Part shown: piece after piece, positions 22,337-58,653 of the stretch
Numbering within the stretch: the first letter of the stretch is position 1
How the letters are laid out: every line of letters starts with the position of its first letter
Assembly (NCBI GenBank): GCA_963753345.1
Contig: CAVWBU010000015.1
Location: forward strand, 50,337-114,336
Length of the DNA: 64,000 bases
From: an uncultured Fibrobacterota bacterium
Lineage (GTDB): Bacteria > Fibrobacterota > Chitinivibrionia > Chitinivibrionales > FEN-1185
Direction of reading: 5' to 3'
Translations under genes and position numbers: made by a program
The notes under the pieces: model-generated
Told to the model about the DNA's origin: nothing
The model's database searches: none
The model's input: only the letters and a program-made list of their open reading frames with translations

Positions 22337-22381
22337 CATTGTGGAATGATGATCGCAGAATGCGGAATAAGGCAGAAGAAT

Positions 22382-26974: not shown

Positions 26975-27142
26975 ATGGGCGTTCCCTTGGCAGAGGCGCA
27001 AGATTTTTCGCCTCTGCCAAGGGCGGCCCTCGCTCCGGTCTCGGCCTTCGGCCTCGGGCGGCCTGCCACAAAGGCCCTGCGGGCCGTGGTCAGGCCGCAC
27101 CGTGCTCCAGCGCGGCCTCCGTTCCGGCCTAACGCGGCGCAG
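26975..27142 (-). repeat. Family-A structured intergenic repeat (type II-like, no 5' arm)
   Basis: The plus strand reads ATGGGCGTTCCCTTGGCAGAGGCG-caagattttt-CGCCTCTGCCAAGGGCGGCC..GGTCTCGGCCTTCGGCCTCGGGCGGCCTGCC...GGCCTAACGCGGCGCAG. It starts 18 nt after the lexA stop codon. Confidence 0.8.
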
Positions 27143-27205: not shown

Positions 27206-27412
27206 ATTGGCGCGAGATGTGATATTGACAGAATAGACTTCAGTTGCCGCGCGTTAGGTGGACTGGAGGGTGAGCAAGAGCGAATTGCCGGCCGACCCCG
27301 GCCGAAGGCCCTCGGGGCGGTCCGGCAACGAGGCGAAAGCCGAGCCCGGAAGGAGACCGACCCCAGGTAGGAGGCGAACGGCCGTGCGCCTCTACTTGGG
27401 GAAACGTCCCAA
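27206..27412 (+). repeat. Family-A structured intergenic repeat (type I, full length)
   Basis: ATTGGCGCGAGATGTGATATTGACAGAATAGACTTCAGTTGCCGCGCGTTAGGTGGACTGGAGGGTGAGC..ATTGCCGGCCGACCCCGGCCGAAGGCCCTCGGGGCGGTCCGGCAACGAGGCGAAAGCCGAGCCCGGAAGGAGACCGACCCCAGGTAGGAGGCG..CGCCTCTACTTGGGGAAACGTCCCAA. It ends 34 nt before the dnaE2 ATG. Confidence 0.88.
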
Positions 27413-30400: not shown

Positions 30401-30592
30401 ACGCTGAGGCCGGGCCCGTTCGCCATTTCCGGTTATGTCAAGGAACAATTCGGCGTCCCGTCCGTGTTCGCGCAATCGATACGCGGGGTGGAGTGGTCGC
30501 CGTCCATCGTGGATTTCGAGCTGGCGAGCAAGAGATTGATGAAGTCTTACAATGAGGAATTTGTATACAGAGATGCAATTAAGGCAGCATAG
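27446..30592 (+). pseudogene. dnaE2: Error-prone DNA polymerase III alpha subunit (DnaE2/ImuC-like), reading frame interrupted at least twice
   Basis: PHP domain start MNFIHLHTHSEYSF. Frame 2 (27446..) must switch to frame 0 at about 27683 (..DNIVV|LAKNKNGYADMCEVITQRQL) and back to frame 2 at about 28022-28030 (..WETHRILARHR|CSTLSRLKPEEVMADAAYF). The remaining 855 aa are intact. Total length is about 1049 codons, typical of DnaE2 rather than DnaE1. Confidence 0.85.
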
Positions 30593-30605: not shown

Positions 30606-30762
30606 TTTAGTGGGGGAAGGCTCCCCCTCGCTTCGGCTCGGCGCTCGTATTTTCAAAGTTCATCTCATTCCGCGCCGGTCCTACGCTACCCCCTCGTGGG
30701 TAGCCCCCTAGAGAGTTGATTGGCAAGAATGAAACTTGGACTGCGGGGGCACCAAGAAAGAG
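30606..30762 (+). repeat. Family-B structured intergenic repeat (subtype B2)
   Basis: TTTAGTGGGGGAAGGCTCCCCCTCGCTTCGG...CCGGTCCTACGCTACCCCCTCGTGGGTAGCCCCCTAGAGAGTTGATTGGCAAGAATGAAACTTGGACTGCGGGGGCACCAAGAAAGAG. It starts 14 nt after the dnaE2 stop codon. Confidence 0.85.
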
Positions 30763-30784: not shown

Positions 30785-30916
30785 GCTGGCGCAAGAAATA
30801 CCAATTAACTGAATAAATTACTCCTGCCGTGCGTTAGGCAGCCCGAGGCCGAAGGCCGAGACCGGAAGGACGGCCGACCCGACCCCGAGCTTAGTCGAGG
30901 GGAAGGGGAACGCCCT
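30785..30916 (+). repeat. Family-A repeat, internally deleted type II derivative
   Basis: GCTGGCGCAAGAAATACCAATTAACTGAATAAATTACTCCTGCCGTGCGTTAGGCAG joins directly to CCCGAGGCCGAAGGCCGAGACCGGAAGGACGGCCGACCCGACCCCGAGCTTAGTCGAGGGGAAGGGGAACGCCCT. The central helices are missing. It ends 32 nt before the imuB-like ATG. Confidence 0.75.
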
Positions 30917-30947: not shown

Positions 30948-32153
30948 ATGAACTGGTATATAAGCATTTACATTCAGGATTTTCCGGCCCAAGCATACGC
31001 GGCGTATCACCCAGAAATAGTGGGCATGCCGTATGTGATGGCCCGTCAGCGGGCCGACAGCCACAAGAGCGTGGTGACGTCGCTGTCGCCCGAGGCGCAG
31101 GCCAGGGGGATCTATCACGGGTTTTCGGTTGCGCGCCTTAAAGAACGCTTCGGCGACGTTCGTATTGTACAGGAAGACCCATCGCTCGCGGCCGCAATCG
31201 CCGGCGATCTCGGCGCGGTACTGGCCGCGTTCTCGCCCGATGTGCGTGTGGACAAACGCGGAAACGCTCTTGTCAACGTGAGCGGCATGCAGCGGCTTCT
31301 GGCGGCGCGGTTTGGAACGCTGCCCGGAGAAATCCGCGCCGCTGTGAAATCGGTACTGGCCCTGCGCGCCTGCGCATGCGGCGCGGCCGCGTCGCCGTAC
31401 GTGGCGTTTATGGCCGCCCGCGCAGCCGCGCCCGACGGCGTTGTCGTATGCGAACAGGGCGCCGAGGCGGCCATGCTCGCGCCGGTCGCGGCAGCGGCCC
31501 TGCCCGGCCTTTCCGATGGCGTAAAGCAGCGGCTCGCCGATTACAATATACGCACGGTCGCCGACATTCAACGGCTTTCCGAGGGTTTTTGTGCGGCCAG
31601 GTTCGGCGAGGAAGGCGTACGGCTGCACGCCATGGCGCACGGCATGTTCCTCGAAGCTCGGCCGCTGTCCGCCCCTCCTGACATCGAATACGGCCGCACG
31701 CTCGCGCGCGACGAGAACGACGCTGCCGCACTGAAGAGCCATATACGATACATTGCAGACAGGCTCGCGTTCGAGCTGCACGCGGCCCAAAAGCAGGCCG
31801 GCAGCGTGGCGTTTACGGTGCGCTATTCCGACAACAAGGCCGTGCGGCGCTCCATGAGGCTTTTGTCGCCCACGGCAGATTTCACCACGCTGTACGAATG
31901 CTGCTGCCGGCTGTTTGCGCAGGCCTGCGACCGTCGCATCGCGGTGCGGCGGCTGTCGGCGTCGGCGCGGCCGTTTGACGAACGCGAATGCCAGCTCGAT
32001 CTGTTCGACAACGCGGCGCAGGTGAAGCAGGAGAACATCGGCAGGAGCATAGGGGAGATACGGGTGAGGATGGGGTTTGGGATTGTAAGAAATGGCAATA
32101 TAGAATACAATGCCGTCGGGGGAGAGGTACAGCCTGTCTCAAAACCCAGTTGA
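30948..32153 (+). CDS. imuB: Y-family polymerase-like protein lacking the canonical catalytic motif (ImuB-like)
   Basis: 401 aa. Y-family fold pattern, but it opens YISIYIQDFPAQAY instead of the DinB-type IDMDAFF. It lies next to dnaE2. The last ~12 codons and the stop lie inside repeat element C. Confidence 0.62.
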   Translation: MNWYISIYIQDFPAQAYAAYHPEIVGMPYVMARQRADSHKSVVTSLSPEAQARGIYHGFSVARLKERFGDVRIVQEDPSLAAAIAGDLGAVLAAFSPDVRVDKRGNALVNVSGMQRLLAARFGTLPGEIRAAVKSVLALRACACGAAASPYVAFMAARAAAPDGVVVCEQGAEAAMLAPVAAAALPGLSDGVKQRLADYNIRTVADIQRLSEGFCAARFGEEGVRLHAMAHGMFLEARPLSAPPDIEYGRTLARDENDAAALKSHIRYIADRLAFELHAAQKQAGSVAFTVRYSDNKAVRRSMRLLSPTADFTTLYECCCRLFAQACDRRIAVRRLSASARPFDERECQLDLFDNAAQVKQENIGRSIGEIRVRMGFGIVRNGNIEYNAVGGEVQPVSKPS

Positions 32154-32300
32154 AGAGCTGGGCGCCTGCCTTCGGCACCGGTTCTCCTTCCGGTCTCGGC
32201 CGCAGGCCTCGGGCTGCCTGCCACGAAGGCCCTGCGGGCCGTGGTCAGGCAGCACCGCGCTTTGGCGCGGCCTCCAGTCGCCCCTGGCGCGCGGCAGAAG
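32117..32300 (-). repeat. C extension plus family-A repeat (type II)
   Basis: The plus strand reads GGGGGAGAGGTACAGCCTGTCTCAAAACCCAGTTGAAGAG (C), then CTGGGCGCCTGCCTTCGGCACCGGTTCTCCTTCCGGTCTCGGCCGCAGGCCTCGGGCTGCC...CCTCCAGTCGCCCCTGGCGCGCGGCAGAAG. It is colinear with the reverse complement of 16695..16872. Confidence 0.8.
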
Positions 32301-34746: not shown

Positions 34747-34786
34747 AATAACAAATTATACATGACGCGGTTAAGAAAAAAAAAGA

Positions 34787-34822
34787 GTTGAAGCGTTGAA
34801 AAGTTGAAACGTTGAAAAGTTC
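34787..34822 (+). repeat. GTTGAANN tandem octamer tract (4.5 units)
   Basis: GTTGAAGC GTTGAAAA GTTGAAAC GTTGAAAA GTTC. No B copy lies upstream in this case. Confidence 0.8.
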
Positions 34823-34867
34823 TAAATTAAAAATAAAACGTCCCCCCTTGATTTATAGCGAATGCCG

Positions 34868-35051
34868 ATTGGCGCGAGAAAAACTAATTGTCTAAAAGGG
34901 AGGCTATTGCCGCGCGCCAGGCAGGATCGGAAGGTGAGCTAAAGCGAATCGCTGGCCGACCCTCGCCGTGGGCGCTAAGGGCGGTCCAGCAACGAGGCCG
35001 TAGGCCGAGCCTGGAGGGAGGGCCGCCGCCGCGTAGCGGCGGGGCGCCCAT
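34868..35051 (+). repeat. Family-A structured intergenic repeat (type I, full length, divergent)
   Basis: ATTGGCGCGAGAAAAACTAATTGTCTAAAAGGGAGGCTATTGCCGCGCGCCAGGCAGGATCGGAAGGTGAGC..ATCGCTGGCCGACCC...GGGCGGTCCAGCAACGAGGCCGTAGGCCGAGCCTGGAGGGAGGGCCGCCGCC-GCGT-AGCGGCGGGGCGCCCAT. Confidence 0.85.
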
Positions 35052-35075: not shown

Positions 35076-35888
35076 CTACGTGACCTGGATCAGCCCGCTG
35101 CTGATCTTCTCTATCTTTTCGAGACTGGCGAGGAATGCGTCAACCACCCGCGGATCAAATTGTTTGCCCCGTTCACTCTTTATGACCTCGATCGCATCGG
35201 GAATGGAGGTGGGGTCCTTGTAGGAGCGTTTCGATGTGATTGCGTCAAACGTGTCGGCGAGCGCCACGATCCTTCCCGGAAGGGGAATGGCGTCGCCTAT
35301 GATACCGCACGGATACCCGGTGCCGTTCCACCGTTCGTGATGGGTAAGAGCGATCTGCCCGGCAACGGTGAGAATGTGCGACTTGGAATTGGCGAGGATT
35401 TCCGCGCCGATGACCGTGTGCCGCTTCATGATGCTGAATTCATCGTCTGTCAACCTGCGCGGCGCGGTGATGATGTAATCCGGTATGCCGATCTTGCCGA
35501 CATCGTGCATGGGTGCGGCATAGAGGATGGTGAGAACGTCCCGTTCGGAAAGCCCCATTTTCTCGGCGATGACCGCGCTGTACCTGCTCATGCGCGCGAT
35601 ATGCTGACCGGTGAACTCGTCTTTGTACTCCACGGCCAGCATCAGCCGGTGGACCGTGTCGTAATACGCTTCCTGCAGTTCATTGTTCACCGACTTGAGC
35701 ATCGAATTGTTCCTCTGCAGGTCTTCGGCGTACTTCTTGAGCTGCCGGTTGGTGGCGGCAAGTTCATTGCGGTGTTTTTTTGTTTCCTTGTAGAGGCGGG
35801 CGAAATCGCGAGCGTACCTGATGGACTGCGACGACGCGAGCTCCAGTTCCTTCTTGAGGGCTTGCGTCTTCGCCGACCGGAGCAGCAT
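35076..35888 (-). CDS. HD-GYP domain protein (probable c-di-GMP phosphodiesterase) with N-terminal coiled coil
   Basis: 270 aa. HDVGKIGIPD and HHERWNGTGYP motifs. Confidence 0.85.
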   Translation of the reverse strand: MLLRSAKTQALKKELELASSQSIRYARDFARLYKETKKHRNELAATNRQLKKYAEDLQRNNSMLKSVNNELQEAYYDTVHRLMLAVEYKDEFTGQHIARMSRYSAVIAEKMGLSERDVLTILYAAPMHDVGKIGIPDYIITAPRRLTDDEFSIMKRHTVIGAEILANSKSHILTVAGQIALTHHERWNGTGYPCGIIGDAIPLPGRIVALADTFDAITSKRSYKDPTSIPDAIEVIKSERGKQFDPRVVDAFLASLEKIEKISSGLIQVT

Positions 35889-38263: not shown

Positions 38264-39253
38264 ATGAACCTTCTTTCAAAAGCGCACGATCTGCTGCAAA
38301 AATCGCTTGATGATTGCATTTCCCCGCAGGATCTCGACGCCGTTATCGCATGGCCTTTGGAGGAAATCTCGCTGCTGTTCGCATGTGCCGATCGTGTGAA
38401 GCGAACGTTTTTCCACAACACGGTCGATCCGTGTGCGCTCATGAACATCAAATCGGGAAACTGTTCGGAAGACTGTGCGTTCTGCAGCCAGTCATCGCGC
38501 AACAAGACCGACGTGCCGATACGGGATTTGGCGGGTAAGGACGAGATTATCGCCGCCAGCAGAGCCGCGGCGGAGAAAGCCCTTGCTTTTTGCGTGGTTT
38601 CCAGCGGCAGGCGGGTCGCACCCACCGAACTCAAGAAGGTGGCGGCCGCGCTCAAACAATGCCGCGGAGAAAAACACGCTTCCCTTGGTATTCTTTCCGA
38701 AGAAGAATTCCGGCTGCTCAAGTCAGCGGGCGTGACGTGCTATAACCACAACCTTGAGACGAGCAGGCGGTACTACGCATCGATCGTGTCAACTCACCGG
38801 TACGATGACCGTGTGAATACGGTGCGCGCGGCGCAAAAGGCCGGACTTCGCGTGTGCTGCGGAGGGATATTCGGCATGGGCGAGACGTGGGAAGACAGGA
38901 AGGCCTTGTGCCTGGAGCTTGGGGCGCTCAATGTCGACACGATACCAATGAACTTTCTTATTCCCATCCCCGGCATACGGGTGGCGCCGGCCTCGGAGTC
39001 GCCGCTGGAGTTTCTCAAGATCGTATCGATGTTCCGGCTCGCTCATCCCCGCAGGACCATAAAGGTCTGCGGCGGCAGGGAAAAAAACCTCGGCCCGATG
39101 CAGTGCCTTATTTTCTGCGCCGGTGCAAACGGATATATCTCGGGCGGATACCTTACGACGCAAGGAAACGGGATAGAGGCGGATGACGAGATGATAAGGC
39201 TTCTTGGATTGACAAAGAAGCACGTGAGGAAGATGGCACTTTACCCTATATAA
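38264..39253 (+). CDS. bioB: Biotin synthase
   Basis: 329 aa. IKSGNCSEDCAFCSQS radical SAM motif, YNHNLETS, and the GGI.GMGE motif. Confidence 0.92.
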   Translation: MNLLSKAHDLLQKSLDDCISPQDLDAVIAWPLEEISLLFACADRVKRTFFHNTVDPCALMNIKSGNCSEDCAFCSQSSRNKTDVPIRDLAGKDEIIAASRAAAEKALAFCVVSSGRRVAPTELKKVAAALKQCRGEKHASLGILSEEEFRLLKSAGVTCYNHNLETSRRYYASIVSTHRYDDRVNTVRAAQKAGLRVCCGGIFGMGETWEDRKALCLELGALNVDTIPMNFLIPIPGIRVAPASESPLEFLKIVSMFRLAHPRRTIKVCGGREKNLGPMQCLIFCAGANGYISGGYLTTQGNGIEADDEMIRLLGLTKKHVRKMALYPI

Positions 39254-39258
39254 ATAGG

Positions 39259-39420
39259 ATGGGCGTTTCCCTCCCCCTCGACAAAGCTCGGGGTCGGGTC
39301 GGCCCTCCCTCCGGTCTCGGCCTTCGGCCTCGGGCTGCCACGGCCCTATGGCCCACAGGGCCGGGTCCGGGCAGCATCCCGCTTTGGCGGGACCTCCGGT
39401 CCTGCCTAACGCATGCGCAT
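39259..39420 (-). repeat. Family-A structured intergenic repeat (type II, no 5' TTGAC arm)
   Basis: The plus strand reads ATGGGCGTTTCCCTCCCCCTCGACAAAGCTCGGGGTCGGGTCGGCCCTCCCTCCGGTCTCGGCCTTCGGCCTCGGGCTGCCACGGCCCTATGGCCCACAGGGCCGGGTCCGGGCAGCATCCCGCTTTGGCGGGACCTCCGGTCCTGCCTAACGCATGCG. It starts 6 nt after the bioB stop codon. Confidence 0.85.
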
Positions 39421-44512: not shown

Positions 44513-44673
44513 GAGTGGGGGAGGTCTCCCCTCGCTACGGCCCGGCCGCGCAGGTTTGCAAAGTAATATTCCGAATGTGCGCGTCCGGTCCTCCGCTACC
44601 CCCTCCTGGGTGGCCCCCTTGATGGCGCAGTGGCAAGCGCGACACATGGTTGTGGGGGCACCGACGAAGAGCA
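44513..44673 (+). repeat. Family-B structured intergenic repeat (subtype B1)
   Basis: GAGTGGGGGAGGTCTCCCCTCGCTACGGCCC...CCGGTCCTCCGCTACCCCCTCCTGGGTGGCCCCCTTGATGGCGCAGTGGCAAGCGCGACACATGGTTGTGGGGGCACCGACGAAGAGCA. It starts 14 nt after the carB stop codon. Confidence 0.88.
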
Positions 44674-44709
44674 GTTGAAAAGTTGAAACGTTGAATCGTT
44701 GAAACGTTC
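44674..44709 (+). repeat. GTTGAANN tandem octamer tract (4.5 units)
   Basis: GTTGAAAA GTTGAAAC GTTGAATC GTTGAAAC GTTC. Confidence 0.85.
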
Positions 44710-44744
44710 AAGAGATCGAGATTCGGAACTTTTCTTGTGGAGCA

Positions 44745-44844
44745 ATTGGCGGGAGACCCGGCCTCAAGGCATAGGGCGGGCGGCAACGAGGCGAATAGCC
44801 GGCCCGGAGGGAGACCGACCCCGCGAAGCGGGGGAACGCCCAAT
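44745..44844 (+). repeat. Family-A repeat, internally deleted type I derivative (~100 nt)
   Basis: ATTGGCGGGAGACCCGGCCTCAAGGCATAGGGCGGGCGGCAACGAGGCGAATAGCCGGCCCGGAGGGAGACCGACCCCGC-GAA-GCGGGGGAACGCCCAAT. It keeps both termini but lacks the TTGAC arm and the GCCGCGCGTTAGG..GGAGGG part. Confidence 0.8.
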
Positions 44845-44906: not shown

Positions 44907-46514
44907 ATGCCCAAGTACATCTTTGTGACAGGCGGAGTCGTGTCGTCCCTCGGAAAGGGAATTACCGCGGCGTCAATCGGGGTGCTTCTCAAGTCGCGCG
45001 GGCTGCGGATCGTGCACCAGAAATTCGATCCGTACCTCAACGTCGATCCGGGCACCATGAACCCGTACCAGCACGGTGAAGTGTACGTCACCGACGACGG
45101 CGCGGAGACCGACCTCGATCTCGGCCACTACGAACGGTTCACCGGCGTCACCACCAACAAGAACTGCAACTACACCACGGGCCGCATCTACGACGCCATC
45201 ATCAAGAAGGAGCGCAGGGGAGACTACCTGGGAGGAACCGTGCAGGTGGTTCCGCACGTCACCACCGAAATCTGCAACAGCATCCGCAGCGTTGCCTCGG
45301 CGGAGGTCGACGTGGTGATATGTGAAATCGGCGGCACGGTGGGAGACATAGAAAGCCTTCCGTTCCTCGAGGCGCTGCGGCAGTTTAGGCTTCAGGAAGG
45401 CCGCAATAACGTGCTGTTTATCCATGTGACGCTTATCCCGTATTTGAAAATGGCGGGTGAAATCAAAACAAAGCCGACCCAGCATTCGGTGGGAAAACTT
45501 CGCGAAATAGGCATCATGCCCGACATGCTGATCTGCCGCACCGAGAAACACATCGACAAGGACTCGCGCAAGAAGATCTCCCTGTTCTGCAACGTTGACG
45601 AAGAGGCGGTGATCGAGGCTTTCGACGCTCCCCATTCGATCTACGAAGTGCCGCTCGACTTTGCGGCGCAGGACATAGATCAGGTGATCATCGATATTCT
45701 GGGGCTGCGGGCGGGCCGGCGCAACCTCAAGGCGTGGCGGGACTACGTCGACCGCGTGATCAACGCGGAAAAAACGGTGAATATCGCCATCGTGGGAAAA
45801 TATTCCGAACTGCTTGACGCGTACAAATCGATTCATGAATCTCTCAACCACGCCGGCGCGTTTCACAGCGCGAAAGTCAAAATACTGAGCGTGTCGGCCG
45901 AAGACATCGAAAGAAACGGCGCCGACAAAATTCTCACGGATGCCGACGGCATATTGGTGCCCGGCGGATTCGGGGGCAGAGGCGTTGAAGGTAAAATTCT
46001 CGCCGTGAAATACGCGCGGGAAAACAAGGTGCCGTATTTCGGCATCTGTTACGGCATGCATATGGCAGTGATCGAATTCGCCCGCAATGTCCTGAAGCTT
46101 GAGTGCGCCGACACCACGGAGAACAACGCGGAAACAAAGTACCCCGTCATCCATTTGATGGAGGAACAGAAACGCATCATGAACCTGGGCGGCACAATGC
46201 GCCTCGGCGCTTTCCCCTGCACGCTCAAGAAAGGGACTGCAGCGCGCAAGGCATACGGCAAAGATCAGATCAGCGAACGCCACCGCCACCGGTATGAATA
46301 CAACAACGATTATCGGGAACAATTCGAGAAGGCCGGACTTGTCGTATGCGGTGAATCGCCGGACGGCATGCTTGTGGAAATGGTGGAAATAGAAAATCAT
46401 CCATGGTTCGTGGCCGTGCAGTTTCACCCGGAATTCAAGTCGAGGCCGGTTGATCCGCATCCGCTGTTCAGGGATTTTGTGGGGGCGAGTATTAAGTATG
46501 GCGGGAAGAAATAG
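44907..46514 (+). CDS. pyrG: CTP synthase
   Basis: 535 aa from [19 protein letters not shown]. GATase domain with GICYGMH. Confidence 0.97.
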
Positions 46515-46525
46515 AGATAAGATTC

Positions 46526-46649
46526 TTGGTGGGGGAAGTATCCCCCCTGCCTGCGGCCCTGCGGTCCTCCGGCACCCCCTCCTGGGTGCTCCCCATGATG
46601 GTGCAGCGGCGAGCGCAATACATGGTTGAGGGGGCACCCACGAGGAGCA
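46526..46649 (+). repeat. Family-B structured intergenic repeat (subtype B1, short)
   Basis: TTGGTGGGGGAAGTATCCCCCCTGCCTGCGGCCCTGCGGTCCTCCGGCACCCCCTCCTGGGTGCTCCCCATGATGGTGCAGCGGCGAGCGCAATACATGGTTGAGGGGGCACCCACGAGGAGCA. It starts 12 nt after the pyrG stop codon. Confidence 0.9.
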
Positions 46650-46689
46650 GTTGAAAAGTTGAAACGTTGAACAGTTGAAGAGTTGAAAA
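46650..46689 (+). repeat. GTTGAANN tandem octamer tract (5 units)
   Basis: GTTGAAAA GTTGAAAC GTTGAACA GTTGAAGA GTTGAAAA. Confidence 0.88.
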
Positions 46690-46727
46690 ACAAAGAAAGA
46701 AACGTTGGTTGATGTATGCGAATGCGG

Positions 46728-46924
46728 GTTGGCGCGAGAAGAAGTAGTTGACTGAAAGGAATTCTGTTACCGCGCGTTAGGTGGACCGGAGGGTGAGCTA
46801 AAGCGAATTGCCGGTCGACCCGGCCGAAAGGCATAGGGCGATCCGGCAACGAGGCCGAACGGCCGAGCCCGAAGGAAGACCGACCCGACCCCGAGCGAAG
46901 TCGAGGGGGAGGGGAACGCCCAAT
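46728..46924 (+). repeat. Family-A structured intergenic repeat (type I, full length; reference copy)
   Basis: GTTGGCGCGAGAAGAAGTAGTTGACTGAAAGGAATTCTGTTACCGCGCGTTAGGTGGACCGGAGGGTGAGCTAAAGCGAATTGCCGGTCGACCCGGCCGAAAGGCATAGGGCGATCCGGCAACGAGGCCGAACGGCCGAGCCCGAAGGAAGACCGACCCGACCCCGAGCGAAGTCGAGGGGGAGGGGAACGCCCAAT. Confidence 0.9.
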
Positions 46925-46940
46925 TCTTATCGTATCTTGT

Positions 46941-46963
46941 AAAGCGGTGCCCCCACCAAGAAC
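46941..46963 (-). repeat. Family-B 5'-end fragment
   Basis: AAAGCGGTGCCCCCACCAAGAAC is identical to the string at 39654-39676. It lies 33 nt upstream of the purF start. Confidence 0.6.
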
Positions 46964-46995
46964 TACTGATTGATATTTAAACTTAACAATAGGCA

Positions 46996-48408
46996 GTGAT
47001 ATCCATGAGCACCCTCATCGACGGCATGGGCGAACAGTGCGGCATCTTCGGGATTTTCAACAGCCACGAAGCAGCGGAACTGACCTACCTCGGCCTGTAC
47101 GCGCTCCAGCACCGCGGCCAGGAAAGTTCCGGCATCGCGGTGTCGAACCAGACCACCGTCACTATGTACAAGGCAATGGGCCTGGTGAACCAGGTTTTCA
47201 AGCATCAGAGTTCGATTGACAATCTCAAAGGATCGAGCGCCATCGGCCACAACCGGTACTCCACCACGGGATCGTCCGATCTCGCCAACGCCCAGCCGAT
47301 TCTCGTCAACTGCCGCATGGGCCAGATAGCGGCCGCCCACAACGGCAACCTTACCAACACCGCGGCGCTCCGCACCGAAATGGAGAACGACGGTTCAATT
47401 TTCTCCTCGACGACCGACACCGAGGTAATCGTGCACCTCATCGCGCGGTCGAAGCGCGAAACCGTGGACGCCATGATCCTTGACGCGCTCTCGCGCGTCA
47501 AGGGGGCGTATTCCATTTTGTTCCTTACCAAGGACGCGCTGTACGGCGCGCGCGACCCGCGGGGCTTTAGGCCGCTCATCCTTGGAAGGACAGGCGACAT
47601 TTCGTTCCTGTCGTCGGAGACCTGCGCGTTCGACCTGGTGGGAGCGTCGATCGAGCGCGAGGTGAAGCCGGGTGAGATGGTGCGTATTGACAAGAACGGA
47701 ATCCAGAGCTTTTCCATCCCCGTGTTCGAACGCATCAAGCGTCCGTCGTACTGCATCTTCGAATACATTTACTTTTCGCGCCCCGATTCGTTCGTGTTCG
47801 GTGAAAACGTGGACAAGATACGGCGGAGGCTCGGCCGCCAACTCGCCAAGGAGCACCCAGTCAAGAGCGCGGACTTCGTGATGGGCGTTCCCGACTCGGC
47901 GACAACGGCCGCGCTCGGGTTCGCGCAGGAGAGCGATCTCAGGTTCGACATCGGGCTCATCCGCAACCACTATGTGGGCAGGACCTTCATCCAGCCCGTC
48001 CAGGCGGGAAGGGACCTCGGGGTACGCATCAAGTTCAATCCTGTCAAGGGCGTTCTCAAGGGCAAGAAAGTTGTCGTTGTCGACGATTCCATTGTGCGCG
48101 GCACCACCATGCGGAAGATTGTGCAGCTCCTTCGCACGGCGGAACCTGCCGAGATCCACCTCCGCATTTCGTCGCCGCCCATTGTGAGCCCGTGCTTCTA
48201 CGGCATCGACATGCCCACCAAGAAGGAACTCATCGCCTCGGAGAAAACGGTCGAGGAAATCCGTAAGTACCTCGAGGTGGATTCGCTCGGCTACCTTTCC
48301 ATAGACGGCCTGCTATCGGTTGTCAACGAACCGCGCTCGAATTTCTGCGCCGCGTGCTTTACGGGGGAATATCCGGTTGAGGTTTCCGGCGAGAAAGGTC
48401 ACTGCTAA
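46996..48408 (+). CDS. purF: Amidophosphoribosyltransferase
   Basis: 470 aa. N-terminal propeptide, then CGIFGIF (the Ntn Cys). PRTase motif VVVVDDSIVRGTT. C-terminal Cys ligands. The start could be the GTG at 46996 or the ATG at 47005. Confidence 0.95.
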   Translation: MISMSTLIDGMGEQCGIFGIFNSHEAAELTYLGLYALQHRGQESSGIAVSNQTTVTMYKAMGLVNQVFKHQSSIDNLKGSSAIGHNRYSTTGSSDLANAQPILVNCRMGQIAAAHNGNLTNTAALRTEMENDGSIFSSTTDTEVIVHLIARSKRETVDAMILDALSRVKGAYSILFLTKDALYGARDPRGFRPLILGRTGDISFLSSETCAFDLVGASIEREVKPGEMVRIDKNGIQSFSIPVFERIKRPSYCIFEYIYFSRPDSFVFGENVDKIRRRLGRQLAKEHPVKSADFVMGVPDSATTAALGFAQESDLRFDIGLIRNHYVGRTFIQPVQAGRDLGVRIKFNPVKGVLKGKKVVVVDDSIVRGTTMRKIVQLLRTAEPAEIHLRISSPPIVSPCFYGIDMPTKKELIASEKTVEEIRKYLEVDSLGYLSIDGLLSVVNEPRSNFCAACFTGEYPVEVSGEKGHC

Positions 48409-48422: not shown

Positions 48423-48581
48423 TTTGTGGGGGAAGGTTCCCCCTCGCTCCGGCCCGTCGCTCCGTCAAATCTCTGCTCGTTGGTCCTTACGCGCCGGTCC
48501 TCCGCTACCCCCTCCTGGGTAGCCGCCTTGACAAAGCAGCTGCGAGATCAAACATTGTTGTGGCGGCACCCACGAAGAGCA
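48423..48581 (+). repeat. Family-B structured intergenic repeat (subtype B1, GCCGCC/GGCGGC variant)
   Basis: TTTGTGGGGGAAGGTTCCCCCTCGCTCCGGCCC....CCGGTCCTCCGCTACCCCCTCCTGGGTAGCCGCCTTGACAAAGCAGCTGCGAGATCAAACATTGTTGTGGCGGCACCCACGAAGAGCA. It starts 15 nt after the purF stop codon. Confidence 0.88.
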
Positions 48582-48591
48582 ATGGTAAAAG

Positions 48592-48630
48592 AGTTGAGAA
48601 GTTGAGTAGTTGATAACTGGTAGTTGATTG
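48592..48630 (+). repeat. Degenerate GTTGANNN tract
   Basis: GTTGAGAA GTTGAGTA GTTGATAA CTGGTA GTTGATTG. Confidence 0.6.
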
Positions 48631-48647: not shown

Positions 48648-48848
48648 ATTGGCGTGAGAAGAAGTGGTTGACTGACAAGACTCCTTCTGCCGCGCGTTAG
48701 GCAGGACTGGAGGTCCCGCTAGAGCGGGATGCCGCCCGGACCCGGCCGCTACTGCGGCATAGGGCCGAGGCGGCCCGAGGCCGAAGGCCGAGACCGGAAG
48801 GACGGCCGACCGGAGCCTGCGTCTTGACGAAGGCTCGGGAAACGCCCA
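48648..48848 (+). repeat. Family-A structured intergenic repeat (type II, full length)
   Basis: ATTGGCGTGAGAAGAAGTGGTTGACTGACAAGACTCCTTCTGCCGCGCGTTAGGCAGGACTGGAGGTCCCGC-TAGA-GCGGGATGCCGCCCGGACCCGGCCGC-TACT-GCGGCATAGGGCCGAGGCGGCCCGAGGCCGAAGGCCGAGACCGGAAGGACGGCCGACCGGAGCCT..AGGCTCGGGAAACGCCCA. It ends 15 nt from the stop codon of the convergent ychF-like gene. Confidence 0.9.
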
Positions 48849-49934: not shown

Positions 49935-50172
49935 GCAGGGCTCCTTTGAGAATGAGAATAAGGGGAGGATGAAAATAGAAGATGCGGAAGAAAGGCAGGG
50001 GAGGAGAAACGGGGGAAGAGATCCGCGTGGGCTGAGTGGATAGTATGCCGATGGGTTTTACGGTGATGTGCGGGGAGGATTTAGTGCCAACGTGTGCCGC
50101 ACTGCCCGCCGTGCCCGCCTATAATCTCGCCACCCCACGGAAGCCACGACGGAGTCTTCGACACGGCTGGCT

Positions 50173-50201
50173 GACATGACGGGTGTCGAAACCGTCATGT
50201 C
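50173..50201. other. Perfect 10-bp stem hairpin in the ychF upstream spacer
   Basis: GACATGACGG-gtgtcgaaa-CCGTCATGTC. No flanking T-run. Function unknown. Confidence 0.5.
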
Positions 50202-50312
50202 AAGCGGGCATGGCGCGGCTGCGTGAGTTGGTGGCCCGTGTATGTGGCATTTGTTTCTTGGCGCGCGTCAAATTTTGTCTTTTCAATAAAACTTTGCAAA
50301 ATATAGCAATAT

Positions 50313-50747
50313 TTAGTGCTTCTTGTGCAATGTTATTGTAGGTAAAACCCATTCTCCTTTGGCATTTTGTTTTAACGATTGAAGCTGTGCGTTGGAGAGG
50401 CTGTCGTAGTATGTTGTAATGCTATCTCCCTTTATCAGAATCCTTAATGGACCACACTCCCATTGCTCTACCTTGTCGTTTATGCAGTGGGACATCGTGA
50501 CTCCGCCAGCTCCGAAATTGCCAATTGAATCTGGGTGAGACGGCTGCATCCCTGCAACATCTTGCGGAGTAAGATAGAAATCAAGATTACTGGAATAAAC
50601 GGAAAGACTTGGGTAGAAAATAGCTCCGCTATCAACGGCCAAGGAACCCCTATAAGCTATGAGTTCGCTAGATGTATCCCAGCAACACGAAAAGAAACTA
50701 AAGGGAAGAAACATAAGAAAGAGGCCGGAAAAGTTACTTCTGTACAT
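50313..50747 (-). CDS. Small hypothetical secreted/lipoprotein-like protein in the AT-rich islet
   Basis: 144 aa from MYRSNFSGLFLMFLPFSFFSCCWD (hydrophobic leader with Cys). AT-rich codon usage unlike neighbouring genes. No recognisable family. Confidence 0.4.
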   Translation of the reverse strand: MYRSNFSGLFLMFLPFSFFSCCWDTSSELIAYRGSLAVDSGAIFYPSLSVYSSNLDFYLTPQDVAGMQPSHPDSIGNFGAGGVTMSHCINDKVEQWECGPLRILIKGDSITTYYDSLSNAQLQSLKQNAKGEWVLPTITLHKKH

Positions 50748-51306
50748 TATTGCCCCATTGTTTGAAATATCCGAAGTCAAGGATAAGTCCAATTGTTAAC
50801 CCAGATTGATAAGGCTCCGTAAAACCAGTTGTGAATATTTCGAAAAATTCTCCGATTGCCATAAATGGAAGGGGCGAAAACATGATATTGTCCCCAATCT
50901 TATAAACAGCCGAAGTCTTATTGAGTTCCAAATATCTATTGCTTTCAAGCCAAACACCTCGGTAAATACTATGGGCTATTCCGATACCGCCATAAACATC
51001 GAGCATGAACTTCCACCATTTCCATAATCTGCCATAACATGGCACCAATTCGTCATACAATTGGGTAGGCGTTACCGATACTTTGTGAAATGTATATGTC
51101 TCATCGGCGTGGGAATAAATGATCTTGATCAAATGTTTATGAATTGTACCGTTGAGTTCGAAAGAGAATCCTGTCATTGAACTGTCTTCCAGCAAGAGCA
51201 TTTCCGAAACCTTGGAAGAAACCCAAATTGATGAAAAATCTTCGGAGGAATTGCATATGGAAATCAACGAAAAGACAAAGATCAGAAATTCAATCATTAC
51301 TTTCAT
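50734..51306 (-). CDS. Small hypothetical secreted/lipoprotein-like protein in the AT-rich islet
   Basis: 190 aa from MKVMIEFLIFVFSLISICNSS (hydrophobic leader with Cys). Its end overlaps the start of the downstream ORF by 14 nt. No recognisable family. Confidence 0.4.
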   Translation of the reverse strand: MKVMIEFLIFVFSLISICNSSEDFSSIWVSSKVSEMLLLEDSSMTGFSFELNGTIHKHLIKIIYSHADETYTFHKVSVTPTQLYDELVPCYGRLWKWWKFMLDVYGGIGIAHSIYRGVWLESNRYLELNKTSAVYKIGDNIMFSPLPFMAIGEFFEIFTTGFTEPYQSGLTIGLILDFGYFKQWGNNVQK

Positions 51307-51577
51307 TGAAATGACCTTGACATGCGCAAACAAAGATTTCTAATAACTGTGAAAATCAGCGCGCGTCTCTTCAATGCCACAAACATGGACACCAACTACA
51401 GGTATGTCGCGATTCCACATTCCACCCAAAATGGCTTCTTATCCTACTTATCGCCGATGGCAGTCATACAGTTGATAACAAAACAATTCATGCGTTCCCT
51501 GGAAGCAAGGACAATTGCAAAAGCGGACCCAGCGAAGAAAGTGACAAAGACATGAAGTAAGTAAGTGCATGGTGCCA

Positions 51578-51737
51578 CCACTCTTCGTGGGTGCCGCCTC
51601 AGCGATGTATGGTCTCGCAGCTGCTTTGCCAAGGCGGCTACCCAGGAGGGGGTAGCGGAGGACCGGCGCGTAAGAACCAACGAGCAGCGATTTGAGGGAG
51701 CGATGGGCCGGAGCGAGGGGGAGCCATCCCCCGACGA
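51578..51737 (-). repeat. Family-B structured intergenic repeat (subtype B1, GCCGCC/GGCGGC variant)
   Basis: The minus strand reads GTCGGGGGATGGCTCCCCCTCGCTCCGGCCC...CCGGTCCTCCGCTACCCCCTCCTGGGTAGCCGCCTTGGCAAAGCAGCTGCGAGACCATACATCGCTGAGGCGGCACCCACGAAGAG. It is the closest relative of the 48423 copy. Confidence 0.85.
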
Positions 51738-54127: not shown

Positions 54128-54291
54128 CTTAGTGGGGGAGGTATCCCCCTCGCTCCGGTCCGGTCGCGCTGTTTGTAAATCACCATCCAGAATGTGCGCG
54201 CCCGGTCCTCCGCTACCCCCCTCCTGGGTGGCCCCCAAGTAAGTTTGTTTGCAAGAAAGTTGCTTCGGTTGGGGGGCACCCACGGAGAGCA
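54128..54291 (+). repeat. Family-B structured intergenic repeat (subtype B2)
   Basis: TCTTAGTGGGGGAGGTATCCCCCTCGCTCCGGTCC....CCGGTCCTCCGCTACCCCCCTCCTGGGTGGCCCCCAAGTAAGTTTGTTTGCAAGAAAGTTGCTTCGGTTGGGGGGCACCCACGGAGAGCA. It starts about 13 nt after the stop codon of the TPR gene. Confidence 0.88.
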
Positions 54292-54325
54292 GTTGAAAAG
54301 AAAAAGCGTTGAAAAGTTGGAAAGC
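54292..54325 (+). repeat. Degenerate GTTGAAAA tract
   Basis: GTTGAAAA GAAAAAGC GTTGAAAA GTTGGAAAGCC. Confidence 0.6.
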
Positions 54326-54435: not shown

Positions 54436-54650
54436 ATTGGCGCAATAAATATGAATTGACAGAATAGATTCCCTCTGCCGCGCGCTAGGGGCGACTGGAG
54501 GTCCCGCCATAGCGGGATGCCGCCCGGGCCCGCCGCTGCTGCGGCATAGGGCCGGGGCGGGCCCGAGGCCGCAGGCCGACGACCCTTGGAAGCACCCGAA
54601 GGGGTGGACCGGAAGGAGAACCGACCCCGCAAAGCGGGGGAACGCCCAAT
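54436..54650 (+). repeat. Family-A structured intergenic repeat (type II, full length with extra internal hairpin)
   Basis: ATTGGCGCAATAAATATGAATTGACAGAATAGATTCCCTCTGCCGCGCGCTAGGGGCGACTGGAGGTCCCGC-CATA-GCGGGATGCCGCCCGGGCCCGCCGC-TGCT-GCGGCATAGGGCCGGGGCGGGCCCGAGGCCGCAGGCCGACGACCCTTGGAAGCACCCGAAGGGGTGGACCGGAAGGAGAACCGACCCCGC-AAA-GCGGGGGAACGCCCAAT. It ends 26 nt before the gltX ATG. Confidence 0.9.
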
Positions 54651-56150: not shown

Positions 56151-56272
56151 TTGGTGGGGGAAGTTTCCCCCTGCCTGCGGCCCTACGGTCCTCCGGCACC
56201 CCCTCGTGGGTGGCCCCCAAGGAAGTTGATTTGCAAGAAAGATGCCTCGGTTGGGGGGCACCCACGAAGAGC
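56151..56272 (+). repeat. Family-B structured intergenic repeat (subtype B2, short)
   Basis: TTGGTGGGGGAAGTTTCCCCCTGCCTGCGGCCCTACGGTCCTCCGGCACCCCCTCGTGGGTGGCCCCCAAGGAAGTTGATTTGCAAGAAAGATGCCTCGGTTGGGGGGCACCCACGAAGAGC. It begins directly after the gltX TGA (56147-56149). No octamer tract follows. Confidence 0.9.
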
Positions 56273-56335: not shown

Positions 56336-56500
56336 CCTTCTGTCCGCGCGTTAGGGGCGACTGGAGGTCCCGCTGAGGCGGGATGCCGCCCGGACCCGGC
56401 CCTGTGGGCCATAGGGCCGTGGCGGCCCGAGGGCGGAGCCCGAGACCGGAAGGAGAACCGACCCGAGCCCGAGCGCAAGCACGGGCGAGGGGAACGCCCA
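56336..56500 (+). repeat. Family-A structured intergenic repeat (type II, no 5' TTGAC arm)
   Basis: CCTTCTGTCCGCGCGTTAGGGGCGACTGGAGGTCCCGC-TGAG-GCGGGATGCCGCCCGGACCCGGCCCTGTGGGCCATAGGGCCGTGGCGGCCCGAGGGCGGAGCCCGAGACCGGAAGGAGAACCGACCCGAGCCCG..CGGGCGAGGGGAACGCCCA. It ends 40 nt before the glnS ATG. Confidence 0.88.
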
Positions 56501-56540
56501 GTCTTTCTTACTATACCAAAAAGGAAAAAGAGAGAACATC

Positions 56541-58254
56541 ATGACAGAAGAAAAAGTAAATCAGATTGCACCAGAATCCGAAAAACCCGCAAACTTCATC
56601 CGCGAGATCATCGCGCAGGACCTCGCATCGGGCAAGGTGAAGAAAGTGGTAACGAGGTTCCCGCCCGAGCCCAACGGCTATCTGCACATCGGACACGCCA
56701 AGGCCATAAGCATAGATTTCGGAATGGCCATGGAATTCGGCGGCGAATGCCACCTACGCTACGACGACACCAACCCGAGCAAGGAAGACCAGGAATATGT
56801 GGACGCCATCCAGCAGGACGTACGGTGGCTCGGCTACGACTGGGGAAAGCACCTCTATTATGCGTCCGATTACTTCCAGCAGATGTACGAGTGGGCGGTG
56901 CACATGATAAAGGCCGGCACGGCATACGTGTGCGACCTTTCTGCCGACCAGATGCGCGAGTACCGGGGCACGCTTACGCAGCCGGGAAAAGAAAGCCCGT
57001 ATCGCAACCGCACCGTAGTGGAGAACCTCGATCTGTTCGAGCGCATGCGCAAAGGGGAGTTTCCGGACGGCTCCCGTACCCTCCGGGCAAAAATAGACAT
57101 GGCATCGCCGAACCTTAACATGCGCGACCCCGCCATGTACCGCATCGTCAAGAAACCCCATCATCGCCAGGGCGATGCATGGTGCATCTATCCAATGTAC
57201 GACTGGGCCCAGGGCAACGAGGACGCCATAGAAGGGCGTCACGCATTCCCTCTGTTCGCTCGAATTCGAGAACCACCGGCCGCTGTACGACTGGTTCTTA
57301 AAACATGCGCCGGTGCCGTGCATTCCCCAGCAGCGGGAGTTCGCGCGTCTCAATCTCACCTATACCGTCATGAGCAAGCGCAAACTGCTCCAGCTGGTGG
57401 AGGAGAAATATGTAAGCGGCTGGGACGATCCGCGCATGCCGACGATATGCGGCATGCGGCGGCGCGGGTACGCGCCCGAGGCGATCCGCGCGTTCTGCGA
57501 AAAAATCGGCGTTGCCAAACGCGACAGCATGGTCGAGGTTGCCCTGCTAGAGCATTGCGTGCGCGAAGATCTCAACAGGCGTACGCCGCGTGCCATGGCC
57601 GTGCTGCATCCGCTCAAGGTCGTCATCGACAATTATGCGGACGGTAAAACCGAAGAGCTTGACGCGGTGAACAATCCCGAGGACCCTTCGATGGGGAGCA
57701 GGAAGGTTCCGTTCTCGAAAGTGCTTTACATCGAGAAAGAAGATTTCATGCTCGATCCGCCCAAGAAATTCTTCCGTCTTTCACCCGGCAGGGAAGTGCG
57801 GCTTCGGTATGCGTATTTCATCACCTGCACGTCGGTGGAAAAGGATGCCGCGGGTACGGTGACCGCCGTGCACTGCACTTACGACCCCGCCACGCGGGGC
57901 GGTGCCGCGCCCGACGGCCGCTCGCCAAAGTCAACCATGCACTGGGTTTCGGCGCAGCATTCGGTCTCCGCGGCAATCCGGCTCTACGACTATCTCCTGA
58001 CAAAGGAAAACCCGGCGGACGTCGCCGAGGGCATGGATTTCAAATCGCTCATCAATCCGCAGTCGCTCGTCGCGGTGAACGACGCCCGTCTGGAGCCGGC
58101 GCTCGCGCATGCAATGCCGGGCGACAGATTCCAGTTCGAGCGGGTGGGATATTTCTGCGCGGATACGGTCGACTCAAAACCGGGGAAACCGGTGTTCAAT
58201 AGGACGGTGTCGCTGAAGGATACGTGGGCGAAGATACAGAAGAAGCAGAAGTGA
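56541..58254 (+). pseudogene. glnS: Glutamine--tRNA ligase with a +1 frame disruption at 57234-57237
   Basis: Frame 0 gives ..NFIREII..DL......[20 protein letters not shown]... up to DAIEG, then nonsense. Frame 1 from 57235 reads [22 protein letters not shown]...[13 protein letters not shown].. through to the stop at 58254. The join DAIEG|[10 protein letters not shown] matches the conserved GlnRS block. One extra nt lies in or next to a GGG run. Confidence 0.85.
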
Positions 58255-58273
58255 AATTCCACATAAAATAAAA

Positions 58274-58314
58274 ATCCCGTTTCCCTGCCTTTGCAAGTGG
58301 AAACGGGATCTTTT
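58274..58314. terminator. Bidirectional intrinsic terminator between convergent glnS and the RRM-protein gene
   Basis: Perfect 11-bp stem ATCCCGTTTCC...GGAAACGGGAT (14-nt loop), followed by CTTTT on the plus strand and preceded by AAAATAAAA (a T-run on the minus strand). Confidence 0.8.
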
Positions 58315-58347
58315 ATCGGAAACCGCAACCTTCCGGTAAGGCTCTGC

Positions 58348-58653
58348 TTACCAGCGTCCGCCGCCGCCTCCTCCTCCGAACCCGCCTTTGCCGCGTCCGC
58401 CTTCCGGCTTTGGACGGGCCTCATTGACGGTGAGCGCGCGGCCTTCGAGCTCTTTGCCGTTCATGGCTGCGATGGCTGCCTGTGCTTCCTGGTCCGAACC
58501 CATTTCCACGAAGCCGAACCCCTTTGACCTACCAGAGTCCCGGTCGGTGATGACCTTGGCCGAGGCTACTGTCCCGAACCCTGCGAACATTTCCTGCAGC
58601 GAGCTGTCGCTAACGCTGTAGGGCAGGTTGCCTACATACAACTTGTTACCCAT
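58348..58653 (-). CDS. RRM-type RNA-binding protein with Gly-rich tail
   Basis: 101 aa. RNP2 KLYVGNL and RNP1 KGFGFVEM, with a C-terminal GGRGKGGFGGGGGGG tail. Confidence 0.9.
   Translation of the reverse strand: MGNKLYVGNLPYSVSDSSLQEMFAGFGTVASAKVITDRDSGRSKGFGFVEMGSDQEAQAAIAAMNGKELEGRALTVNEARPKPEGGRGKGGFGGGGGGGRW

Follow-up and report, generated by a model that had tools for sequence, protein, structure and literature searches.

The 64-kb window analysed here (64,000 nt; GenBank assembly GCA_963753345.1, contig CAVWBU010000015.1, positions 50,337 to 114,336) belongs to a Chitinivibrionales bacterium, a soil member of the Fibrobacterota, and includes the gene cluster carA-carB-pyrG-purF. Nearly every long intergenic spacer of the window is occupied by a repeat that we term Family A. 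Iterated nhmmer searches identified 16 copies (10 on the forward and 6 on the reverse strand), about one per 4 kb; two of these carry internal deletions, and there is one further isolated end motif. Allowing one mismatch, the window contains the end motif, GGGGAACGCCCA, 15 times, where 0.6 occurrences would be expected. Attention had been drawn to the copy at 46728-46924 by a preliminary description, made from the sequence alone, which proposed a conserved multi-hairpin architecture with compensatory substitutions between copies. Our best reading of Family A is an intergenic repeat that spreads horizontally, is non-autonomous and folds on its sense strand; it matches no catalogued RNA family.

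The fold of Family A

The strand ending in GGGGAACGCCCA and a T/U-rich tail folds as a closed domain of about 135–165 nt with seven helices, an architecture on which single-sequence folds of 76 copies, RNAalifold and pair counts all agree. A closing helix (P1) encloses an irregular rod (P2-P3-P4), a junction with the hairpins P4a, P5 and P6 and, finally, a hypervariable hairpin (P7). The coordinates given in this section are those of the copy at 46728-46924, on the forward strand.

P1 closes the whole domain by pairing GCGTT (46774-46778) with 46915-46919, and its two variable positions are UA in 61–64 copies, CG in 15–19 and GC in 4 (GCGUU/AACGC exchanging with GCGCC/GGCGC). According to the pair counts, the 5' strand of the rod (46780-46793) consists of P2 GGT, loop GGA, P3 CC, loop GGA and P4 GGG, and its 3' strand (46868-46881; pair counts and sequence) of P4 CCC, loop GAA, P3 GG, loop AAG and P2 ACC, the two 3' loops being GGA and GAG in most copies. 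P3 is CG in 52 copies and UA in 27, while P4 is GC in 73 and AU in 10 at the outer pair, and GC in 61 and UA in 10 at another. The two 3x3 internal loops enclosed by these short helices are purine-only, near-symmetric and conserved across phyla. On this point the preliminary description has to be revised, as it took the invariant blocks to be single-stranded; instead, GCGTT pairs with AACGC in P1, and the blocks GGACCGGAGGG and CCCGGARGGAG.CC pair with each other in P2-P4, in both cases with covariation.

The hairpin P4a (46794-46807; TGAGC-TAAA-GCGAA with tandem G.A) has double changes at 5 of 5 pairs and appears elsewhere as TGCGC/GCGCA or CCCGC/GCGGG. P5, a long bulged hairpin in the minimum free energy (MFE) fold (46808-46849; TTGCCGG TCG A CCC ... 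GGG CGA T CCGGCAA), has double changes at 11 of 13 pairs, and in both hairpins CG, GC and UA are exchanged at almost all positions. The outer P5 helix had been located correctly (TTGCCGG at 46808-46814, CCGGCAA at 46843-46849), and its variants are found in other copies as reported: GCTGG/CCAGC at 34870, GCCGCC/GGCGGC at 16396, 25813, 48650, 54438 and 56298, and a G.U form at 22556. The same is true of the small GGCC-loop-GGCC hairpin, of the TCCCGC/GCGGGA hairpin and of the hairpin of unrelated sequence before GGGGAACGCCCA. In this copy P6 (46853-46864; GGCC GAAC GGCC, from pair counts) is set between CGA and GAG within 46850-46867, where the flanking columns CGAGG and CCGAG are invariant and could lengthen P6 by a tandem G.A and one C-G pair.

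P7 (46884-46913) ranges from 13 to 45 nt among copies, is unrelated in sequence from copy to copy and is replaced even between orthologs. In some copies (25813-25870(-), 26976-27030(-) and L016:5179-5240) it contains a palindrome of A-tract, GC-stem and T-tract that resembles a bidirectional intrinsic terminator, and 9 of 13 copies with a long P7 are directed toward stop codons. The domain ends with the 3' strand of P1 (AACGC), CCA and the T-rich tail (46915-46934), which form the fixed, gene-proximal terminus. From +3 to +12 after GCCCA the tail is 55% T and 17% A, identical in all contexts, and the T-rich tract starts about 5 nt past P1 and about 11 nt past P7. An additional helix between tail and 5' extension (P0, AUUGG/CCAAU; for the extension see below) was rejected for lack of covariation.

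Covariation and selection

With 44 copies aligned by MAFFT without regard to structure, 81% of the cells are paired, compared with 35–54% when the partners are slid. Double changes occur at 21 pairs, and the 151 double-change cells compare with 52 ± 6 after shuffling, none of 500 shuffles reaching the observed value. A covariance model (R1, with rough E-values) yielded 89 copies by cmsearch in the window and 57 loci. In the alignment fitted to it, 85% of the cells are paired and double changes are present at 32 of the 41 pairs, amounting to 353 double-change cells, a value that again none of 500 shuffles equalled; slid controls were 36–52% paired. The R1-fitted alignment leans toward the structure, but the MAFFT-only result agrees with it, and RNAalifold finds the same helices independently. 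Compensatory variants of P1 (GCGUG/CACGC, GGGUG/CACCC, GCGCG/CGCGC) and P2 (GCC/GGC) extend to distant homologs across phyla.

The copies between gltX and gluQ in the window and at a related locus (L028, orthologous to window 56339-58642 at 90.5% identity) are identical at 118 of 120 core positions beside coding sequences of only 81–90% identity, and P7 is fully replaced. Such a near-identical core indicates purifying selection or gene conversion. The covariation, far above that of the shuffles, gives strong support to selection on the fold and not on the sequence alone, as the preliminary description had proposed, and the well-preserved orthologous core adds to this support. Its proviso that the copies might be recent duplicates with identical stems does not apply: the stems covary, and Family A copies are not recent identical duplicates.

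Recent invasion of a Chitinivibrionales sub-clade

Loci of relatives were reached through a search for purF homologs, which are named Chitinivibrionales, and every such locus keeps the order carA-carB-pyrG-purF. Counted by cmsearch, the window (purF 100%) has 16 copies in 64 kb and cluster spacers of 400–600 nt, and L059 (purF 96%) has 4 copies in 21 kb with spacers of the same size. Single copies in 21 kb were found in L060 (92%), where the pyrG-purF spacer is 153 nt long and copy-free, and in L061 (88%), with a copy-free cluster and spacers of 85–88 nt. L065 (87%) has two copies in 16 kb and a copy-free pyrG-purF spacer of 87 nt, and L062, L063 and L064 (82%, 77% and 74%) have none in 64 kb and spacers of 21–170 nt. 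Because relatives at 74–88% purF identity keep the gene order with short spacers and have no element at those sites, Family A is shown to be a recent invader of one Chitinivibrionales sub-clade, which inflated the 20–90 nt spacers of an ancestral carAB-pyrG-purF cluster (from 21–88 nt to 400–600 nt) and filled many other spacers as well. It thereby split a conserved, operon-like cluster that was probably co-transcribed. Its spacers are insertion hot spots: a gene of the 23S_rRNA_IVP family lies between carA and carB in L060 (4137-4496) and L065 (2737-3138), and an insertion sequence (DDE_Tnp_1) between carB and pyrG in L065 (7510-8232).

Recombination between near-identical genomes both exchanges and inverts copies. 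The orthologous pyrG-purF site holds a subtype with UU/AA in P1 in the window and one with CC/GG in L059, the flanks being otherwise orthologous (a cassette swap), and the composite between purF and ychF is wholly inverted in L059 relative to the window.

The taxonomic range comprises at least the following lineages. Among the matches listed in a pattern scan of GTDB species genomes, most fell in three metagenome-assembled genomes (MAGs) of Fibrobacterota/Chitinivibrionales. Outside the phylum, R1 found full-length copies in a Deltaproteobacteria MAG (L013, L014 and L019, 38–54 bits) and, at 44 bits, on a contig of 81% GC binned as Klebsiella (L041), and the same core was seen by eye in two lake 'proteobacterium' MAGs (L017, L051). 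The distant copies retain the blocks GGACCG.AGGG and CGAGG-hairpin-CCGAGCCCGGARGGAG and likewise lie between ordinary genes (upstream of pgi, after rplQ). In the Deltaproteobacteria MAG (L014:4195-4255, L019:3290-3350(-)) the 3' end CACGCCCAG recurs about 30 nt downstream (..CACGCCCAGAAGATC), and this repeat could be an alternative partner in P1 or an insertion footprint. A blastn search of 72,556 plasmids with the Fibrobacterota and delta-type cores gave no match, a pattern scan of viral contigs gave 0 matches, and a metagenome scan with a delta-type pattern that was too narrow gave a single match, by chance. In one further MAG (SMAG_U9540, DATFYJ01) many short contigs start or end inside a Family A copy (L004, L008, L012, L020, L031, L038, L044 and L048), and the repeat probably fragments short-read assemblies of its host genomes.

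The folding strand, and RNA or single-stranded DNA

Wobble pairs are rare in P5 and P7, with 14 G.U and 9 A.C among about 2030 pairs (0.7% and 0.4%), and carry no strand signal, nor did splitting them by genomic context give a significant one. The wobble evidence had been called mixed; the caution was justified. RNAalifold, which had been suggested as a check on both strands, scarcely separates them (-89.6 vs -86.7). Two independent results do separate the strands. The MFE is lower on the strand ending in GGGGAACGCCCA in 70 of 86 copies, by a mean of 2.5 kcal/mol (p = 4e-9), and the 371 hairpin loops on that strand include 69 GNA, 29 GNRA and 14 other G..A loops against 1 UNC, the complement being the mirror image. 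Because of this loop asymmetry and the lower sense-strand MFE, together with a tail that is the same in all contexts, the evidence points to the strand ending in GGGGAACGCCCA and the T-rich tail as the one that folds, which is also the strand preferred in the preliminary description.

The fold could alternatively be a structure of single-stranded DNA (ssDNA), a substrate for a trans-acting HUH/Y1 enzyme (as in REP-RAYT or IS200/IS605) or for a structure-reading recombinase (as in attC-IntI), with selection serving mobility and not host expression. The element is mobile, patchily distributed among phyla and recently expanded, it lacks terminal inverted repeats (TIR) and target-site duplications (TSD) as HUH elements do, and whole-spacer inversion and cassette swaps have been seen. 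Its helices are almost purely Watson-Crick and without wobble asymmetry, and GNA triloops closed by C-G (69 of the 371 loops) are classic, very stable DNA mini-hairpins of the d(GCGAAGC) type. Against this, the strongly covarying helices P1-P4 have only 2–5 bp and join segments more than 100 nt apart, and together with the purine-only loops they are typical of RNA tertiary folds and not of known ssDNA transposon ends. The terminus-proximal hairpin P7 is hypervariable, whereas the hairpins of IS200/IS605 and REP are conserved; there is no leading-strand bias, the copies being 10 + and 6 - under a cumulative GC skew that rises monotonically through the window; and the order GTT...AAC is opposite to that of attC. 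No Y1 or RAYT gene was found beside any copy in the fragments read, and the only RAYT-like gene seen (in L063) has different REPs and no Family A. Going by the sequences, the triloops and scarce wobble would fit DNA, and the long-range covarying helices and invariant purine-only loops would fit RNA; we consider an ssDNA structure an unlikely explanation.

Position relative to genes

Gene context was read for 76 Fibrobacterota copies with a crude codon-usage gene caller, whose starts are biased late. The 3' end of the core faces a codirectional start in 40 of the 76, at a median of 83 nt (range 14–190 nt), and the stop of a convergent gene in the other 36, at a median of 29.5 nt. On the 5' side the next gene is never closer than 74 nt (median about 300 nt), also in copies without the 5' extension. 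Spacers with two copies are head-to-head with the 3' ends outward in 6 of 6 cases, and in spacers between tandem genes Family A is co-oriented with the genes in 24 cases and opposed in 12. The 3' terminus is fixed, always abutting a gene end, and the 5' side is variable and modular.

A cis-regulatory leader of the downstream gene (a riboswitch, a protein-dependent attenuator or an antiterminator RNA) would account for the 40 copies that lie 14–190 nt upstream of a codirectional start codon, for a complex junction fold with invariant unpaired purines and a U-tract, and for the several downstream genes of nucleotide metabolism (purF, pyrG, purC). However, 36 copies are directed toward stop codons, other downstream genes are functionally unrelated (gltX, dnaE2, imuB, pgi), the same genes of sister species are wholly without the element, different subtypes interchange at one site (pyrG-purF), and Rfam gave no match. 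The stop-facing copies and the presence/absence polymorphism largely refute this reading, which we regard as very improbable.

No partner gene emerged. When the open reading frames (ORFs) lying up to 1.5 kb from a copy were clustered all against all, only spurious, repeat-overlapping ORFs came out. In Pfam scans of the neighbours in four lineages there were ordinary genes only, with no recurrent transposase, reverse transcriptase or nuclease beside the copies. The neighbourhoods read amount to about 550 kb of fragments of Family A-bearing and related genomes.

Modules beside the element

On the variable side, modules occur, where present, in the order hp1 - B - (AGTTGAAN)n - 5' extension - A, and whole composites at non-orthologous loci are 72–78% identical. 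The optional 5' extension (TTGGCGCGAGAAG..TTGACTGAAnAGA.T.C; 46728-46770(+) in the flagged copy) is conserved in 23 of 85 Fibrobacterota copies. The 8-nt tandem array lies 5' of many copies in the same orientation (46638-46699(+) here, detected by repeat search as family D1). Three or more GTTGA occur upstream of 13 of the 23 copies with the extension vs 5 of the 62 without. Arrays of 4–6 units of AGTTGAAN, always 5' of a co-oriented copy, are found at 34775-34836, 44662-44731, 46638-46699, 48581-48626, 54280-54325 and about 6640-6700(-), and upstream of pyrG in L061, where there is no Family A, a different 8-mer array (GGATTGCG) is present.

In the long spacers of the window, a stop codon is followed either directly by the reverse complement of Family A or by members of a second repeat family. 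The latter comprises a small hairpin, GGGGGA-nnnn-TCCCCC, 5–25 nt past the stop codon, and then the long 'B' hairpin (CTCCTGGGTGC.CCCC ... GGGGGCACCCA.GAGGAG), and the pair looks like a terminator or 3'-untranslated-region module. It is present at 44515-44650, 46530-46655, 48425-48580, 54133-54270, 56155-56270, 30611-30760, 6640-6830(-) and 22190-22352, and fragments also occur inverted elsewhere (e.g. 46942-46965). A third module, AACTGGGTTTTGAGACAGGCTG..CTTCCCCC, stands immediately 3' of some copies (16830-16875, 22735-22780, 32100-32158(-), and in L053, L016, L010 and L044).

The 5' extension may be a promoter or an extra segment of RNA. A sigma-70 scan gave no promoter match in the unit, the extension included, and sigma-54, ECF and Bacteroidetes-type readings of the extension were rejected by eye on spacing. 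These results bear on the idea that Family A forms the body of small-RNA genes, with a promoter in the 8-mer array and extension and a U-tract terminator, the product acting in trans, for example as a multi-copy sponge of, or scaffold for, a protein with affinity for the GGA-rich purine loops. The conserved extension, a sense-specific fold followed by a U-rich tail, an orientation only weakly tied to the neighbours (24 vs 12 in tandem contexts) and GGA/AGGA motifs exposed in the internal loops would all agree with it. The extension is, however, present in only 23 of 85 copies and no promoter was recognised in the sigma-70 scan. The gene-proximal 3' end and the expression of genes 14–40 nt downstream would be left unexplained, and hundreds of near-redundant genes that are absent in sister species fit a selfish element better, so that small-RNA genes appear improbable to us.

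Another conceivable process resembles that of short interspersed nuclear elements (SINEs): a reverse transcriptase supplied in trans would start at the 3' end of an RNA that terminates in GCCCA and the U-tract, and copy it. A constant 3' terminus with a variable but colinear 5' side (hp1-B-8mer-extension-A), the similarity of composites at non-orthologous loci, several 3'-only fragments (L034, L050, 22150 and 44709), the sense-specific fold and the patchy distribution across phyla are in line with such retro-copying. On the other hand, the 5' ends fall in two classes with no continuum, target-site duplications and an A-rich tail are absent, and no reverse transcriptase gene was seen in the neighbourhoods (about 550 kb of related sequence). 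We also know of no such bacterial element, and attach little probability to this origin.

Further copies in the window

The remaining copies are given here in the order of their position. The copy at 6401-6595(-) has the 5' extension (nhmmer; 74.7 bits in cmsearch). The copy at 16396-16589(-), also with extension, has its 3' end 49 nt from the stop of gene 15322-16347(+) and is head-to-head with the copy at 16695-16829(+), which has a CC/GG-type P1 and points toward the stop of 16880-18085(-). An isolated end motif, GGGGGAACGCCCA with a T-tract and no core, lies upstream of purC at 22150-22162(-), and is followed by a copy with CC/GG-type P1 at 22595-22731(+), scoring 112 bits in cmsearch. At 25813-25977(-) the 3' end is 37 nt past the stop of a GH2 gene and P7 holds the terminator-like palindrome.

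Next come a copy 19 nt past the lexA stop (26976-27138(-)) and, head-to-head with it, a copy upstream of a dnaE2-like gene (27248-27411(+), with its 5' extension from 27208). An internally deleted copy, in which the segment GGCAG..GGCAG is gone, lies upstream of an imuB/dinB-like gene (30787-30916(+)), and that at 32159-32293(-) abuts or overlaps the stop of gene 30948-32153. For the copy at 34870-35050(+), with extension, the distance from the 3' end to the stop of HD-domain gene 35076-35888(-) is 26 nt, and the copy at 39260-39415(-) lies 7 nt past the stop of 38264-39253(+). A 5'-deleted copy upstream of pyrG (44709-44842(+)) corresponds to a full-length copy at the orthologous site of L059. 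The copy at 48650-48848(+), with extension, belongs to the spacer composite that is inverted in L059, and 16 nt separate its 3' end from the ychF(-) stop; that at 54438-54648(+), with extension and an extra hairpin after P6, lies 28 nt upstream of gltX; and the copy upstream of a gluQ-RS-like gene (56345-56500(+)) is the one whose core is shared with L028.

Several neighbouring features were noted. Between 26067 and 34746 lies a cluster resembling an SOS-mutagenesis system (lexA, a dnaE2-like polymerase, an imuB/dinB-like IMS protein and, encoded on the opposite strand, a second Pol IV), in which Family A copies separate each gene from the next. The dnaE2-like gene is broken up into three ORFs (27446-30592), and at 3629-6230 there is an overlap of two long ORFs that lie in different frames; these frameshifts are assembly errors or pseudogenes. 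The gene ychF and a low-GC stretch (46–48% GC, 50000-51500) are bracketed by 152-nt inverted repeats (48428-48579 and 51581-51732, 92% complementary), and the segment between them may be invertible or foreign. The ORFs of the low-GC stretch (50313-51333) had no Pfam match.

Proposed role

We tentatively favour a role in RNA, which seems to us quite possible on the sequence evidence. Family A would be transcribed as part of spacer or untranslated-region RNA, and its fold would act within such run-through transcripts. The closed structure with its U-tract would serve as a leaky terminator, an RNA-end stabiliser or an insulator toward the adjacent gene, keeping spacer-derived transcription from entering that gene unprocessed, by analogy with REP/BIME, ERIC, BOX and Correia elements. 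The invariant purine loops would dock a protein, either a mobilising enzyme or a host RNA-binding protein.

A number of observations weigh against such a role. The distances from P1 and P7 to the U-tract are not those of a canonical intrinsic terminator, and if Family A did terminate transcription, genes 14–40 nt downstream would need read-through. No sigma-70-like promoter was found in the unit, and -10-like hexamers are not commoner after copies that precede starts than after those that precede stops. In half of the copies the 3' end is directed at a gene stop, and a sense transcript would there be antisense to the gene; no mobilising protein was seen near any copy in the neighbourhoods examined. 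Such scarcity of wobble pairs is unusual in functional RNA, and a ssDNA substrate fits the C-GNA-G triloops equally well. None of the models, the favoured one included, fully accounts for the polarity rule and the near-absence of wobble.

A more far-reaching version would make Family A a new class of mobile structured RNA, with a 3'-anchored protein-docking domain moved among genomes and phyla by retro-copying or RNA-guided recombination. It would form a genome-wide boundary module that insulates or punctuates transcription units, a selfish fold that rebuilds operons as monocistronic units. We think this rather unlikely.

Known bacterial interspersed repeats such as REP, ERIC, BOX and Correia are simple palindromes, whereas Family A has a multi-junction fold of the size of a riboswitch. 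It combines more than 30 covarying pairs and purine loops that are invariant across phyla with the behaviour of a young invasive element, and so provides a natural case of an invading structured module that reshapes operon architecture and untranslated regions. This points to a complex nucleic-acid fold being read by a partner protein or a mobilisation mechanism. For work with MAGs, repeats of this type are a warning, as assemblies are probably broken at their copies.

Comparison with known systems

Rfam 15 gave nothing at the gathering threshold across the window, only chance matches below 20 bits for 46500-47010 at E<=10, and one tRNA for six distant-homolog loci at E<=1. No prior description was found in literature searches for the motif strings, Chitinivibrionia or structured intergenic repeats. 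Resemblances to SRP RNA (CCGGAAGGA), to the glycine riboswitch, to retrons and to attC did not hold up in pairing pattern, covariation or box order, and a gene-specific riboswitch or leader was rejected on the stop-facing copies and the element-free genes of relatives. A consensus scan made no terminator call for the element, of which the T-rich tract (55% T) is itself a constituent.

Miniature inverted-repeat transposable elements (Correia, RUP or derived from insertion sequences) were excluded, as the ends share at most TGG...CCA, conservation continues upstream of the TGGCGC block, and comparison of filled with empty orthologous sites shows no duplicated flank and hence no TSD. REP/REPIN elements were rejected since the core is a multi-helix domain of 135–165 nt and not a short palindrome. 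No recurrent ORF accompanies the copies in the fragments read. In L063, which is free of Family A, a RAYT-like Y1 transposase (13560-14330; NF047646, 72.6 bits, below cutoff) is flanked by its own GTGTGGCACTGT... palindromes and is a separate REP system within the same order. Integron attC sites were excluded because either strand reads GTT...AAC, an order that attC has reversed, and because copies lie in both orientations among housekeeping genes. Palindrome-associated transposable elements of IS200/IS605 and TnpB omega-RNAs were excluded by the hypervariable P7, by the strand distribution despite a monotonic GC skew, by the lack of an associated ORF, with no tnpA or tnpB seen in the neighbourhoods read, and by a 3' flank that is a semi-conserved T-tract.

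The RNAs of mobile elements (omega-RNAs of IscB/TnpB including HEARO, bridge RNAs of IS110, group II intron domains) are, like Family A, structured, 100–300 nt long, sharply ended at the 3' side, multi-copy and patchy across phyla. They are encoded beside their own protein gene, however, and their variable parts are guides, whereas Family A has no associated ORF and is followed by a T-tract instead of a guide. The attC sites (VCR/XCR) share with it a conserved structure with variable sequence, a similar length, a position flanking genes, a variable terminal structure and a closing helix containing GTT/AAC, and in attC one folded strand is recognised. Family A differs in the reversed order of GTT...AAC, and it lacks a cassette array, intI and an R/L box pattern with extrahelical bases.

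Correia/NEMIS, ERIC/IRU, BOX and RUP elements are likewise interspersed and 100–200 bp long. They are co-transcribed with their neighbours, fold as RNA and may carry promoters or processing sites, and BOX is modular like the hp1-B-8mer-A composites. Unlike Family A, they are essentially long hairpins made by terminal inverted repeats, with target-site duplications in Correia and RUP; Family A is a multi-branch domain without TIR or TSD and with a cross-phylum distribution. REP/BIME elements resemble it in being high-copy, GC-rich, self-folding intergenic repeats that form mosaic spacers together with other motifs. They are likewise non-autonomous and without TIR or TSD, and are found inside operons as well as at the ends of genes; their effects are on mRNA stability and termination. 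A REP is, however, a single imperfect palindrome of 20–40 nt with a conserved 5' tetranucleotide and is tied to a RAYT gene, whereas Family A, for which no RAYT link was found, is a junction fold of about 150 nt and seven helices, in which helices covary over long range and purine loops are invariant, and its 3' end has a strict polarity.

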